From Escherichia coli (GTDB taxonomy: Bacteria > Pseudomonadota > Gammaproteobacteria > Enterobacterales > Enterobacteriaceae), in NCBI RefSeq assembly GCF_003334765.1, contig NZ_QOWT01000011.1: DNA of 64,000 bases. One strand, written 5' to 3'. The notes beneath the pieces were generated by a model. The model saw only the letters and a list, made by a program, of their open reading frames with translations. It was not told where the DNA came from and made no database searches. A program made the translations under genes and the position numbers. Positions 3,856 through 33,486 of this stretch are shown here, piece after piece. Within the stretch, counting starts at the first letter, position 1. The number at the start of each line of letters is the position of its first letter.

Positions 3856-4436
3856 ACGCGCGCCTCGCATTCGCCCCCTTGTTGTCCTTTTCGCATCGGT
3901 TAATACGGTGAAGAGGGGATCTCAATTACTGCATAAATATGATGAGCAGGCTGCTCATCCAGAAAGCTTCCAGCGGATTTCCAACTTATCGGGAAAGCTG
4001 ATACAGGTCAAATGGCAAGCTTATTGGTACAGAAATGTGCTTTAGCGCAAAATTCTTTATTAAATGACTGAAATTAAAATGGATTTCATCTTTAAGGCTA
4101 AAAGGGAAGTCGTTAGAGAAACAGTCAATTCCTGACTGTCATAAAGGTGTGTTAACCCTTATCCTGCCTTGAACTGACGACAAAACCAGCATTTTATACT
4201 GCCTTAATTGGTAATGACGTTTCATGCTACTGTTTTTGCCTAAAATCCATCAGGAGATAAAAAAATCTGACACAAGATAAGCAAAAGTGATTTATGTGAT
4301 TATGCATGAAATTTCGGTAATTTTGATTGATTATGCAGTTGATAAAAGCAGGCCGGGACGATTGATCCAGGTCATCGCCGAATTGAGCTAAAAATGGCAG
4401 GCTTTGGCCTCTTTTCAAGGCGCGGTCTATCAGATT

Positions 4437-28090: not shown

Positions 28091-29524
28091 CTAATTGTTC
28101 TGATAAATATCTTTATACAAACGGCTTTCAAAACGCACTAACGGAATACGGCGATTACGCTGATCCGCAGGTTCTACTGCATAGCCAGAAAGATATTGCA
28201 CAAACGCCATTCGTTGCCCGCTCGCTGTGGTAATGAATCCCGCCAGGTTATATACCCCCTGCAACGAACCGGTTTTCGCTGAGACTTTTCCATCCACGCC
28301 CGCCTGATGCAGACCTGCACGGTACTGCAAAGAGCCGTCATAGCCCGCCAGCGGCAGCATGGAGATAAAGTTAAGTTCATTGTCGTGTTGGGCAATGTAT
28401 TGCAGCACCTGCATCATGGTGGCGGGGGCAATCAGGTTATGCCGCGAAAGCCCTGAACCATCGGCAATAATGGTGTTTCCAATATCGACACCGGCTTGCT
28501 GGCGCAGGATCTGACGCACGGCGTCCGACCCGGCCCGCCATGTTCCAGGCACATTGAAGCGCGCATGGCCTATCATGCGGAAAACCGTATCGGCGATCAT
28601 GTTGTCCGACTTTTTCAGCATAATCTTAAGCAGATCGTGCAGCGGGGCCGACTGTTTACTGGCAACTACCGTTCCAGGTTCGTTAACCTGAGTCTGGCGC
28701 AGCAGTGTTCCGCTCCAGGTGATACCCGCCTGTTTTAACTCATCTTTCAGAATTGCACCGGCATAGCTGGCTCCATCCTGCACGGCAAAAGCCAACGGGA
28801 GCGGCTCAGAACGTTGTGGCAGGCATCCCGTCAGCGTAAAGCGGTTCAGGTCGCCTGGCACCACATCCAGTTCGCAGTATTGCGCTTCGGCAGAACCACG
28901 GGGGAGGGTGCGTACCTGGCTGAACATCGTAACGGGGTAATAAGATGCCACGCGTATAAAAGCCATATCACCAGGCTTTGGGGCACTGTAGAGCGAGACG
29001 GAGAAACAGTTGCGGTCAACTATGGCGGCGGCAGGCGGAGCGCTAAAGCATTGTGTCATGTCATTCCATGGCCAGCCGGGGGCTTTATCGTGGCTGGCGA
29101 AAATGGAGGTATCTATCAACACATTGCCATCGATTTGGTTGACGCCAGATTTTTTCAAAGTCGCGACCATATTGCGAATATCCTGACGTTTTAACGTCGG
29201 ATCGGCACCAAATCGCGCCACTAAGTCACCCTTAAGTACGCCGTTTTCCACATTGCCTTTGGTTTCAAGCGTCGTGGTAAAACGAAAATCGGGGCCGAGT
29301 TGAATCAACGCCGCCAGCGCAGTAATCACTTTCTGGGTACTGGCAGGCAGCGCCATCTGCTGACTGTGGTAATCAATAGCGGGGGCCGACGCGCCGACTT
29401 TTTGCACCATCAGGGCAAGGTTGGCACCAGCGGGGAGTTGAGTAATGTACTCATCAACATTTGCGGCCTGAACACTGAACGCTATACAGCTGGTCAATCC
29501 GATGATAAATCTGGAAAATCGCAT
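28091..29524 (-). CDS. dacB: D-alanyl-D-alanine carboxypeptidase/endopeptidase DacB, PBP4 (477 aa)
   Basis: Full ORF with signal peptide MRFSRFIIGLTSCIAFSVQA and active-site STQK. Confidence 0.9.
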   Translation of the reverse strand: MRFSRFIIGLTSCIAFSVQAANVDEYITQLPAGANLALMVQKVGASAPAIDYHSQQMALPASTQKVITALAALIQLGPDFRFTTTLETKGNVENGVLKGDLVARFGADPTLKRQDIRNMVATLKKSGVNQIDGNVLIDTSIFASHDKAPGWPWNDMTQCFSAPPAAAIVDRNCFSVSLYSAPKPGDMAFIRVASYYPVTMFSQVRTLPRGSAEAQYCELDVVPGDLNRFTLTGCLPQRSEPLPLAFAVQDGASYAGAILKDELKQAGITWSGTLLRQTQVNEPGTVVASKQSAPLHDLLKIMLKKSDNMIADTVFRMIGHARFNVPGTWRAGSDAVRQILRQQAGVDIGNTIIADGSGLSRHNLIAPATMMQVLQYIAQHDNELNFISMLPLAGYDGSLQYRAGLHQAGVDGKVSAKTGSLQGVYNLAGFITTASGQRMAFVQYLSGYAVEPADQRNRRIPLVRFESRLYKDIYQNN

Positions 29525-29643
29525 AATCTCGCGCTAACAACCTGGAATCGAGCCGTCATACTACGGCGCAACGCCCTATAAAGTAAACGATGACCCTTCG
29601 GGAACTTCAGGGTAAAATGACTATCAAAATGTGAATTGTAGCT

Positions 29644-29678
29644 GACCTGGGACTTGTACCCGGGTCGGTATTTTTTTG
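29644..29678 (+). terminator. Leader terminator/attenuator in the greA 5' region (GraL-type)
   Basis: GACCTGGGACTTGTACCCGGGTC hairpin then GGTATTTTTTT about 95 nt upstream of the greA ATG. Confidence 0.45.
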
Positions 29679-29771
29679 CTTCTGGTCCCGGTAAGGAGTT
29701 ATGCCGGGCAGGCCGAACAGCCGGGGTGGGTGAAGACTTGCCCTATCAGGAATATTCAAGAGGTATAACAA

Positions 29772-30403: not shown

Positions 30404-30697
30404 TTAGCGTGGCAGCGAGATTTTACGTTCTTTAGTTGGGCGATAAAGCACCAGCGTTTTACCGATGACCTGTACATTACAGGCGCCGGTTTCGCGCACG
30501 ATAGCTTCCACGATCAAGGTTTTAGTTTCGCGATCTTCGGTGGCGATTTTCACCTTGATGAGTTCATGGTGCTCTAACGCTTGTTCAATCTCGGCCAGCA
30601 CCCCTTCGGTCAAACCATTACTGCCAAGCAGAACAACTGGCTTGAGCGGATGTGCCAGACCTTTCAGGTGCTGTTTTTGTTTAGTACTCAGATTCAT
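30404..30697 (-). CDS. yhbY: CRS1/YhbY RNA-binding protein (97 aa)
   Basis: Full ORF MNLSTKQKQHLKGLAHPLKPVVLLGSNGLTEGVL... Confidence 0.85.
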   Translation of the reverse strand: MNLSTKQKQHLKGLAHPLKPVVLLGSNGLTEGVLAEIEQALEHHELIKVKIATEDRETKTLIVEAIVRETGACNVQVIGKTLVLYRPTKERKISLPR

Positions 30698-30720
30698 CGT
30701 ATTTTTTGCTTACGTTGGGA

Positions 30721-30748
30721 TTGAAAACGGGTCATTCTACCGCCATCT
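30721..30748 (+). promoter_or_regulatory. Candidate sigma-32 heat-shock promoter for rlmE-ftsH
   Basis: TTGAAA, 13-nt spacer, CCGCCATCT resembling the sigma-32 -35/-10 consensus (TTGAAA / CCCCATnT). Confidence 0.35.
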
Positions 30749-30822
30749 CCCATATATCACCAAATAGGCGCGTAAAAATTTACGCAATTGGTTACGATGA
30801 GTTATCCCCATGGGAAAGTTAA

Positions 30823-31452
30823 ATGACAGGTAAGAAGCGTTCTGCCAGCTCCAGCCGCTGGCTTCAGGAACACTTTAGCGATAAATATGTTCAACAGGCA
30901 CAGAAAAAGGGGTTACGTTCCCGTGCCTGGTTTAAACTTGATGAAATACAGCAAAGTGACAAACTCTTTAAACCGGGAATGACGGTTGTCGACCTTGGTG
31001 CTGCTCCGGGTGGTTGGTCACAATATGTGGTCACCCAAATTGGCGGCAAAGGCCGCATCATCGCTTGCGATCTTTTACCTATGGATCCTATCGTTGGTGT
31101 GGACTTTCTTCAGGGCGATTTTCGTGATGAACTGGTGATGAAAGCACTGCTGGAGCGCGTTGGCGACAGCAAAGTCCAGGTTGTCATGTCCGATATGGCA
31201 CCAAACATGAGCGGAACACCGGCGGTGGATATCCCCCGTGCCATGTATCTGGTGGAACTGGCGCTAGAAATGTGTCGTGATGTATTAGCGCCAGGTGGCA
31301 GTTTTGTAGTGAAGGTGTTCCAGGGCGAAGGTTTCGATGAGTATCTAAGGGAAATTCGCTCCCTGTTTACGAAGGTCAAAGTTCGTAAGCCGGACTCTTC
31401 TCGTGCACGTTCGCGGGAAGTGTATATTGTAGCGACCGGGCGTAAACCCTAA
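30823..31452 (+). CDS. rlmE: 23S rRNA 2'-O-ribose U2552 methyltransferase RlmE/FtsJ (209 aa)
   Basis: Full ORF; SAM-binding motif [13 protein letters not shown]. Confidence 0.9.
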
Positions 31453-31551
31453 CCGGGAGATTTCAGACGAAAGTTTGAAAGATGCTGGATATAGAGTATC
31501 CTGACGCTGTTTTTAACACAGTTGTAATAAGAGGTTAATCCCTTGAGTGAC

Positions 31552-33486
31552 ATGGCGAAAAACCTAATACTCTGGCTGGTCATTGCCGTTGTGCTGATGT
31601 CAGTATTCCAGAGCTTTGGGCCCAGCGAGTCTAATGGCCGTAAGGTGGATTACTCTACCTTCCTACAAGAGGTCAATAACGACCAGGTTCGTGAAGCGCG
31701 TATCAACGGACGTGAAATCAACGTTACCAAGAAAGATAGTAACCGTTATACCACTTACATTCCGGTTCAGGATCCGAAATTACTGGATAACCTGTTGACC
31801 AAGAACGTCAAGGTTGTCGGTGAACCGCCTGAAGAACCAAGCCTGCTGGCTTCTATCTTCATCTCCTGGTTCCCGATGCTGTTGCTGATTGGTGTCTGGA
31901 TCTTCTTCATGCGTCAAATGCAGGGCGGCGGTGGCAAAGGTGCCATGTCGTTTGGTAAGAGCAAAGCGCGCATGCTGACGGAAGATCAGATCAAAACGAC
32001 CTTTGCTGACGTTGCGGGCTGCGACGAAGCAAAAGAAGAAGTTGCTGAACTGGTTGAGTATCTGCGCGAGCCGAGCCGCTTCCAGAAACTCGGCGGTAAG
32101 ATCCCGAAAGGCGTCTTGATGGTCGGTCCTCCGGGTACCGGTAAAACGCTGCTGGCGAAAGCGATTGCAGGCGAAGCGAAAGTTCCGTTCTTTACTATCT
32201 CCGGTTCTGACTTCGTAGAAATGTTCGTCGGTGTGGGTGCATCCCGTGTTCGTGACATGTTCGAACAGGCGAAGAAAGCGGCACCGTGCATCATCTTTAT
32301 CGATGAAATCGACGCCGTAGGCCGCCAGCGTGGCGCTGGTCTGGGCGGTGGTCACGATGAACGTGAACAGACTCTGAACCAGATGCTGGTTGAGATGGAT
32401 GGCTTCGAAGGTAACGAAGGTATCATCGTTATCGCCGCGACTAACCGTCCGGACGTTCTCGACCCGGCCCTGCTGCGTCCTGGCCGTTTCGACCGTCAGG
32501 TTGTGGTCGGCTTGCCAGATGTTCGCGGTCGTGAGCAGATCCTGAAAGTTCACATGCGTCGCGTACCATTGGCACCCGATATCGACGCGGCAATCATTGC
32601 CCGTGGTACTCCTGGTTTCTCCGGTGCTGACCTGGCGAACCTGGTGAACGAAGCGGCACTGTTCGCTGCTCGTGGCAACAAACGCGTTGTGTCGATGGTT
32701 GAGTTCGAGAAAGCGAAAGACAAAATCATGATGGGTGCGGAACGTCGCTCCATGGTGATGACGGAAGCGCAGAAAGAATCGACGGCTTACCACGAAGCGG
32801 GTCATGCGATTATCGGTCGCCTGGTGCCGGAACACGATCCGGTGCACAAAGTGACGATTATCCCACGCGGTCGTGCGCTGGGTGTGACTTTCTTCTTGCC
32901 TGAGGGCGACGCAATCAGCGCCAGCCGTCAGAAACTGGAAAGCCAGATTTCTACGCTGTACGGTGGTCGTCTGGCAGAAGAGATCATCTACGGGCCGGAA
33001 CATGTATCTACCGGTGCGTCCAACGATATTAAAGTTGCGACCAACCTGGCACGTAACATGGTGACTCAGTGGGGCTTCTCTGAGAAATTGGGTCCACTGC
33101 TGTACGCGGAAGAAGAAGGTGAAGTGTTCCTCGGCCGTAGCGTAGCGAAAGCGAAACATATGTCCGATGAAACTGCACGTATCATCGACCAGGAAGTGAA
33201 AGCACTGATTGAGCGTAACTATAATCGTGCGCGTCAGCTTCTGACCGACAATATGGATATTCTGCATGCGATGAAAGATGCTCTCATGAAATATGAGACT
33301 ATCGACGCACCGCAGATTGATGACCTGATGGCACGTCGCGATGTACGTCCGCCAGCGGGCTGGGAAGAACCAGGCGCTTCTAACAATTCTGGCGACAATG
33401 GTAGTCCAAAGGCTCCTCGTCCGGTTGATGAACCGCGTACGCCGAACCCGGGTAACACCATGTCAGAGCAGTTAGGCGACAAGTAA
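31552..33486 (+). CDS. ftsH: ATP-dependent zinc metalloprotease FtsH (644 aa)
   Basis: ORF 31543-33486; product from [16 protein letters not shown]...; AAA Walker A GPPGTGKT, zinc site HEAGH. Confidence 0.95.

Follow-up and report, generated by a model that had tools for sequence, protein, structure and literature searches.

Does the spacer between the divergent genes yhbY and rlmE of Escherichia coli carry a heat-shock promoter, and which of the C-rich motifs following its TTGAAA hexamer would serve as the -10 element? The entire 125-bp yhbY-rlmE spacer (positions 30698-30822) had been flagged, with the candidate promoter on the rlmE strand, in the 64,000-nucleotide stretch of DNA analyzed here, which we call the window. 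The window is E. coli DNA with the gene order dacB (minus strand), greA (plus) and yhbY (minus), followed by rlmE, ftsH, folP and glmM, all on the plus strand. Open reading frames and annotation identified yhbY (30404-30697, minus strand), the divergent neighbor, as encoding a ribosome assembly RNA-binding protein; rlmE, also known as rrmJ or ftsJ (30823-31452, plus strand), as encoding the 23S rRNA U2552 2'-O-methyltransferase; and ftsH, or hflB (31552-33486, plus strand), the second gene of the operon, as encoding the protease that degrades sigma-32. The yhbY-rlmE intergenic region was 100% identical to that of MG1655, and a 701-bp segment around the promoter was at least 99% identical in each of the 5,426 complete E. 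coli genomes that were searched. A window position w was converted to NC_000913.3 as 3358487 - w.

We conclude with high confidence that the flagged element is the known sigma-32 (RpoH) heat-shock promoter of the rlmE-ftsH operon, listed in RegulonDB as rlmEp2. The promoter is already documented, and our additions are a phylogenetic footprint and an explicit description of its overlap with the promoter of yhbY. The sequence match, the conservation and the agreement of coordinates come from the present analysis, while sigma-32 binding, heat induction and the feedback through FtsH are taken from the literature.

The -35 element, TTGAAA (30721-30726, plus strand), matched the consensus at 6/6 positions. 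An earlier note on this DNA had described the hexamer as followed, after 13 nt (30727-30739), by CCGCCATCT at 30740-30748, and the sequence confirmed this reading. When aligned to TTGAAA-N(13-15)-CCCCATnT, the site was best written as TTGAAA-N14-CGCCATCT, with a 14-bp spacer (30727-30740) that also holds the -10 hexamer of the divergent yhbY promoter, and with the -10 region at 30741-30748; in this form it agreed with 12/13 consensus positions. The -10 region alone agreed with CCCCATnT at 6/7 specified positions, its single mismatch being a G at -14, while the -10 regions of the 11 canonical promoters used for comparison spanned TACGATGT to CCCCATCT. Position -14 is the 'extended -10' position contacted by K130 of sigma-32 (PMC10216364). 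The consensus has also been quoted as CTTGAAA-13/15bp-CCCCAT (PMC3168786), and the base preceding TTGAAA at the rlmE site (A30720, -36) is not the consensus C, whereas a C or a G stands there in each of the 11 canonical E. coli sites, a frequent but not obligatory feature of sigma-32 promoters. The rlmE site thus deviated from the consensus twice, with A for C at -36 and G for C at -14.

The comparison set consisted of the upstream regions of 11 classical MG1655 sigma-32 genes (dnaK, clpP, lon, htpG, clpB, grpE, ibpA, hslV, fxsA, groS and htpX), whose best sites matched 10-13 of the 13 consensus positions with spacers of 13-16. Allowing at most one mismatch, the pattern TTGAAA-N14-CCCCATNT had a single match on the two strands of the 64-kb window, at the rlmE site, where shuffled sequences predicted 0.07; with at most two mismatches the rlmE site was still the sole match (1.58 expected). 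Weight matrices built from the 11 canonical E. coli promoters, with or without 10 Shewanella sites, placed the rlmE site 1st to 3rd among about 128,000 window positions, with 0.1-4.6 equally good chance matches expected per 64 kb, a figure that varied with the pseudocount and with the inclusion or omission of -36. With the 11-promoter matrix that scored -36, the rlmE site fell below all of the training sites because of its A at that position, and 2.5-4.6 equal matches were expected per 64 kb. Because chance matches are expected at these rates by weight matrix, the motif alone can be considered suggestive, but not decisive, and our identification does not lean on the model-dependent matrix scores. 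It is the position of the site and its conservation that lift it above chance.

Two other high-scoring sites were observed in the window. Between yhcC and gltB there is a sigma-32-like sequence, CTTGAAA-13-TGCCATTT (4392-4420, minus strand; about 3354068 on the plus strand of NC_000913.3), which outscored the rlmE site under one weight matrix. It was not among the sigma-32 binding-list entries that were accessible from PMC5493296 and PMC2996942, and on account of this absence it is probably a chance match. To judge from sequence and position, the top weight-matrix match, CTTGAAA-16-CCCCCTTT (about 47090-47120, minus strand), is apparently the opposite-strand reading of the G+C-rich rpsO-pnp terminator hairpin. 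If so, it is a false positive, indicating that terminator stems can mimic a C-rich -10 element.

To obtain a footprint of the spacer, species-representative genomes were scanned with RlmE, yielding 80 Enterobacterales species with RlmE sequences 84-100% identical, ranging from Escherichia to Proteus, Xenorhabdus, Edwardsiella, Budvicia and Zophobihabitans. TTGAAA-N14-C[G/A]CCATCT was found upstream of rlmE in 79 of the 80 species, with CGCCATCT in 78 and CACCATCT in one. The remaining species had TTGTAA-N14-CGCCATAT, and the 14-bp spacing was thus kept in 80/80. Identity to E. coli was 99-100% at each position of the -35 element (30721-26) and of the -10 region (30741-48), and 100% at A30756; positions 30750-54 (28-72%) and 30764-68 (28-76%) were poorly conserved, and identity was again as low as 28-72% from 30766 on. 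These variable positions right beside the motif serve as an internal control for divergence among the sampled species. The footprint decides between the two -10 candidates. The overlapping yhbY promoter and its leader could account for some of the conservation.

The transcription start provided a separate comparison. RegulonDB lists 'rlmEp2, reverse, 3325753' in U00096.2 coordinates, with direct-assay and transcription-initiation-mapping evidence, according to the S2 table of PMC5493296. We calibrated the offset between assemblies on two other listed promoters, clpBp (2732227) and grpEp (2748769); taking their starts to lie 8 nt after the last T of the -10 puts them at 2734205 and 2750747 in NC_000913.3, and both gave +1978 for this part of the chromosome. 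Adding this offset to 3325753 gives 3327731, which is A30756 in the window, 8 nt after the last T of CGCCATCT; the position is uncertain by 1-2 nt, as the offset was self-calibrated. The mapping itself is taken from secondary listings. Numbered as in the structure of the sigma-32 open complex, the dnaKp1 scaffold has CCCC at -15 to -12 and its -10 has the final T at -8 (PMC10216364), and the -10 geometry of rlmE is the same as in that scaffold (PMC10216364). The rule that the start lies 8 nt after the last T was exact for the listed starts of dnaKp2 and fxsAp, held within 1 nt for groSp, htpGp1 and ibpAp, and was 5 nt off for hslVp. The converted start coincides with the position predicted from CGCCATCT, and therefore supports the first of the two -10 candidates.

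Published binding data point to the same holoenzyme. In genomic SELEX with purified sigma-32 holoenzyme, the rrmJ/yhbY spacer gave a 14.1-fold signal, the third-highest peak (PMC5493296). A sigma-32 ChIP-chip signal at ftsJ is given in PMC2996942, and PMC3923258 (Cho et al.) places here the ChIP region SigH_324, with which regions of RNA polymerase and of sigma-70 overlap, as well as the sigma-70 region SigD_1318 covering the spacer. According to a review, the ftsH promoter is recognized by RpoH and induced by heat (PMC8745692), and heat-inducible, rpoH-dependent transcription is likewise stated, after Herman et al., in PMC9927249. Herman et al. 1995 is the reference cited for rlmEp2, or the ftsJ-hflB heat-shock promoter, in PMC5493296 and PMC9927249. 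A full-text literature search with the promoter sequence itself returned no match, and one with promoter names gave nothing of relevance. The proposal in the earlier note of a sigma-32 promoter for rlmE-ftsH, made from TTGAAA and (C)CGCCATCT, is therefore borne out by motif, conservation, published binding and listed start alike.

The spacer also contains a sigma-70 promoter for yhbY on the minus strand. Its -10 hexamer, TAGAAT (30734-30739), lies within the spacer of the sigma-32 promoter, matches the consensus at 5/6 positions and was 95-100% conserved. The probable -35 hexamer, placed by its 18-bp spacing, is TTGGTG (30758-30763), coinciding with bases +3 to +8 of the rlmE transcript; it agrees with TTGACA at 3/6 positions, and its TTG part was 88-100% conserved among the 80 species. 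Transcription of yhbY starts at 30728-30729, as mapped by 5' RACE and SMRT-Cappable-seq: the 5' RACE start lies at -31, which is window position 30728 (PMC2760140 supplement), and the SMRT-Cappable-seq transcription unit begins at NC_000913.3 position 3327758, which is window position 30729 (PMC6131387). The supplement of PMC2760140 assigns 'tggcGGTAGAATgacc' / 'GGTAGAAT' as the sigma-70 -10 of the 5' RACE start. Consistent with this promoter, two further segments of the footprint were nearly invariant, CATTCTAC in the sigma-32 spacer (30733-40) and the block TATCRCCAA (30755-63), which together read TTGGYG-N18-TAGAAT on the minus strand. The invariance of the sigma-32 spacer can be attributed to the yhbY promoter on the other strand, since a sigma-32 promoter needs no such sequence.

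Other readings of the same elements were considered. The one that survives best, and which we nevertheless hold to be very unlikely, is that they serve mainly sigma-70 holoenzyme as a housekeeping promoter of rlmE. TTGAAA is also a good sigma-70 -35 element, a sigma-70 ChIP region covers the spacer, and the name rlmEp2 implies another rlmE promoter. However, there is no acceptable -10 hexamer 16-18 bp downstream of TTGAAA, where CATCTC matches at 2/6 positions, and the yhbY promoter suffices to explain the sigma-70 signal. A consensus sigma-70 scan of 30698-30822 found nothing on the plus strand, or on the minus strand, where it misses the experimentally mapped yhbY promoter. Further, a 2009 start-site study of cells grown at 30 C reported starts for yhbY and ftsH but no sigma-32 start for rlmE, and the only start upstream of rlmE at that temperature was one single-read entry at -416 (PMC2760140).

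It is less probable still that the block owes its conservation solely to yhbY, as its sigma-70 promoter and 5' leader, and that its likeness to a sigma-32 promoter is coincidental. The TAGAAT hexamer and the mapped yhbY start do lie inside the block, and sigma-70 binding there is on record as region SigD_1318. In the yhbY promoter, however, CGCCATCT falls in the spacer, where sigma-70 has no sequence requirement, and it is invariant there while the adjacent positions 30750-54 vary freely, which argues that it is conserved for a function of its own. The selection of this region in vitro by purified sigma-32 holoenzyme, and the positive sigma-32 ChIP-chip result, also speak against coincidence. 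Least probable of all is that the true -10 is the downstream (T)CCCATAT at 30748-55, with a start around 30762-64: TCCCATAT agrees with CCCCATAT at 7/8 positions, but this choice needs a 21-nt spacer, compared to 13-16 in the 11 canonical promoters, its positions 30750-54 show 28-72% conservation against 99-100% for CGCCATCT, and the converted RegulonDB start at 30756 falls inside or just after it. CCCATAT is indeed present at 30749-30755, as the earlier note had said, but its suggestion of a second element there does not hold, as these bases lie 21 nt from the -35, include the variable positions, and occupy -7 to -1 of the rlmE promoter rather than a -10 element.

After a temperature upshift, the accumulating sigma-32 brings RNA polymerase to rlmEp2, and transcription of rlmE and ftsH increases. 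As FtsH degrades sigma-32, the promoter belongs to a negative feedback loop of the heat-shock response. It couples sigma-32 to the protease that destroys it, forming one arm of the feedback that ends the response, which is textbook knowledge. The ftsH gene also has its own sigma-70 promoter, TTGAAA-16-TATCCT (31475-31502, plus strand), with a start at 31509, as found by a promoter scan and two published start data sets. The start lies at -43 of hflB (PMC2760140 supplement), and SMRT-Cappable-seq detected an ftsH unit at 3326978-3324938 with hundreds of reads, an abundant ftsH-only transcript (PMC6131387). Read-through from greA across the antisense yhbY into rlmE-ftsH is a listed operon variant (PMC6131387), and a study of EHEC reported upstream transcripts running into ftsJ-hflB (PMC9927249). 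These routes, its own sigma-70 promoter and read-through, account for the expression of the essential ftsH gene without stress.

Several further features of the surrounding region were recorded. PMC3923258 includes a sigma-E ChIP region, SigE_19, just upstream of greA (window about 29135-29735), which is consistent with a sigma-E promoter for greA. A 100-aa open reading frame antisense to yhbY (30465-30767, plus strand) crosses the sigma-32 promoter at its 3' end, and corresponds to 'oloz4542', which has been proposed for E. coli O157:H7 as an overlapping gene (PMC9927249). Within ftsH, the minus strand carries an antisense open reading frame of 495 aa (31780-33267), probably a shadow of the highly conserved ftsH frame.

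From the start at A30756, annotated here as rlmEp (RegulonDB rlmEp2), to the start codon of rlmE, the 5' UTR would be 67 nt long (30756-30822), and it includes the ribosome-binding site GGGAAAG (30812-18, plus strand). The ribosome-binding region was the only conserved part of this leader. A small hairpin or palindrome, GCGCGTAAAAATTTACGC, spans +14 to +31 (30769-30786, plus strand); in Citrobacter it reads GTGTAGAAATTTACAC, in which C>T and G>A changes are paired, and more distant genera have unrelated sequences. The 5' UTR was rejected as an unusual, thermometer-like RNA structure, as it folded no better than shuffled sequences (z = -0.06). A PurR site has been predicted over 30782-97 (PMC2760140 supplement), and falls in a non-conserved stretch. 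A third C-rich motif, CCCCAT at 30806-11, lies just before the rlmE ribosome-binding site; its counterpart in the species representative of E. coli is CCCAAT. It was rejected as a -10 element because it has no -35 (9/13 consensus positions), is polymorphic within E. coli and is not conserved in other species.

The two divergent promoters are closely interleaved. Their starts are 27-28 bp apart and about 45 bp are common to both; each -10 lies in the spacer of the other promoter, and positions +3 to +8 of either transcript hold the -35 of its opposite number. All 80 Enterobacterales species in the sample have this arrangement, and Shewanella, in which the spacer sequence ATTCTAC is retained, apparently has it too. 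RNA polymerase footprints measure about 70-75 bp, so we infer that two holoenzymes should not bind the spacer simultaneously, making mutual exclusion of the sigma-32 and sigma-70 holoenzymes at the rlmE and yhbY promoters plausible. It is conceivable, although we regard this as a speculative and rather unlikely extension, that by admitting one polymerase at a time the interleaved promoters act as a sigma-competition switch, in which a rise in sigma-32 would turn rlmE-ftsH on and the 50S assembly factor YhbY off. In the literature that we searched, we found no discussion of the interleaving of the rlmE and yhbY promoters, and no description or test of it as a switch.

Closely spaced divergent, or back-to-back, promoters are a known general class in bacteria. 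The rlmE/yhbY pair resembles this class in that the starts are a short distance apart and both -10 elements lie between them. It is unlike the class in that the sigma factors differ, rlmE being served by sigma-32 and yhbY by sigma-70, and in that each -35 is located in the early transcribed region of the other. Taken as a sigma-32 promoter, the site is the same object as rlmEp2 of RegulonDB and EcoCyc (the ftsJ-hflB or rrmJ-ftsH promoter), from which it shows no difference. With the canonical promoters dnaKp1/p2, htpGp, groSp, grpEp, hslVp, ibpAp and lonp it has in common the TTGAAA hexamer, a 13-14 bp spacer, a -10 of the CCCCATnT type and transcription that begins 8 nt beyond the last T. Its consensus score of 12/13 is the same as that of lon, grpE, ibpA and groS, and its 14-bp spacer is the same as that of htpG, groS and clpP. 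The rlmE promoter departs from the canonical group at two bases: -36 is A, where the others have C or G, and -14 is G in place of C. Variants of this kind have also been predicted in Shewanella, where the clpP site has a CGCCAT variant too and the lon site reads ATTGAAA (PMC3168786). The predicted homologous site upstream of rrmJ in Shewanella oneidensis, GTTGAAAAACCGCTATTCTACCCTTATATA, also keeps ATTCTAC (PMC3168786).
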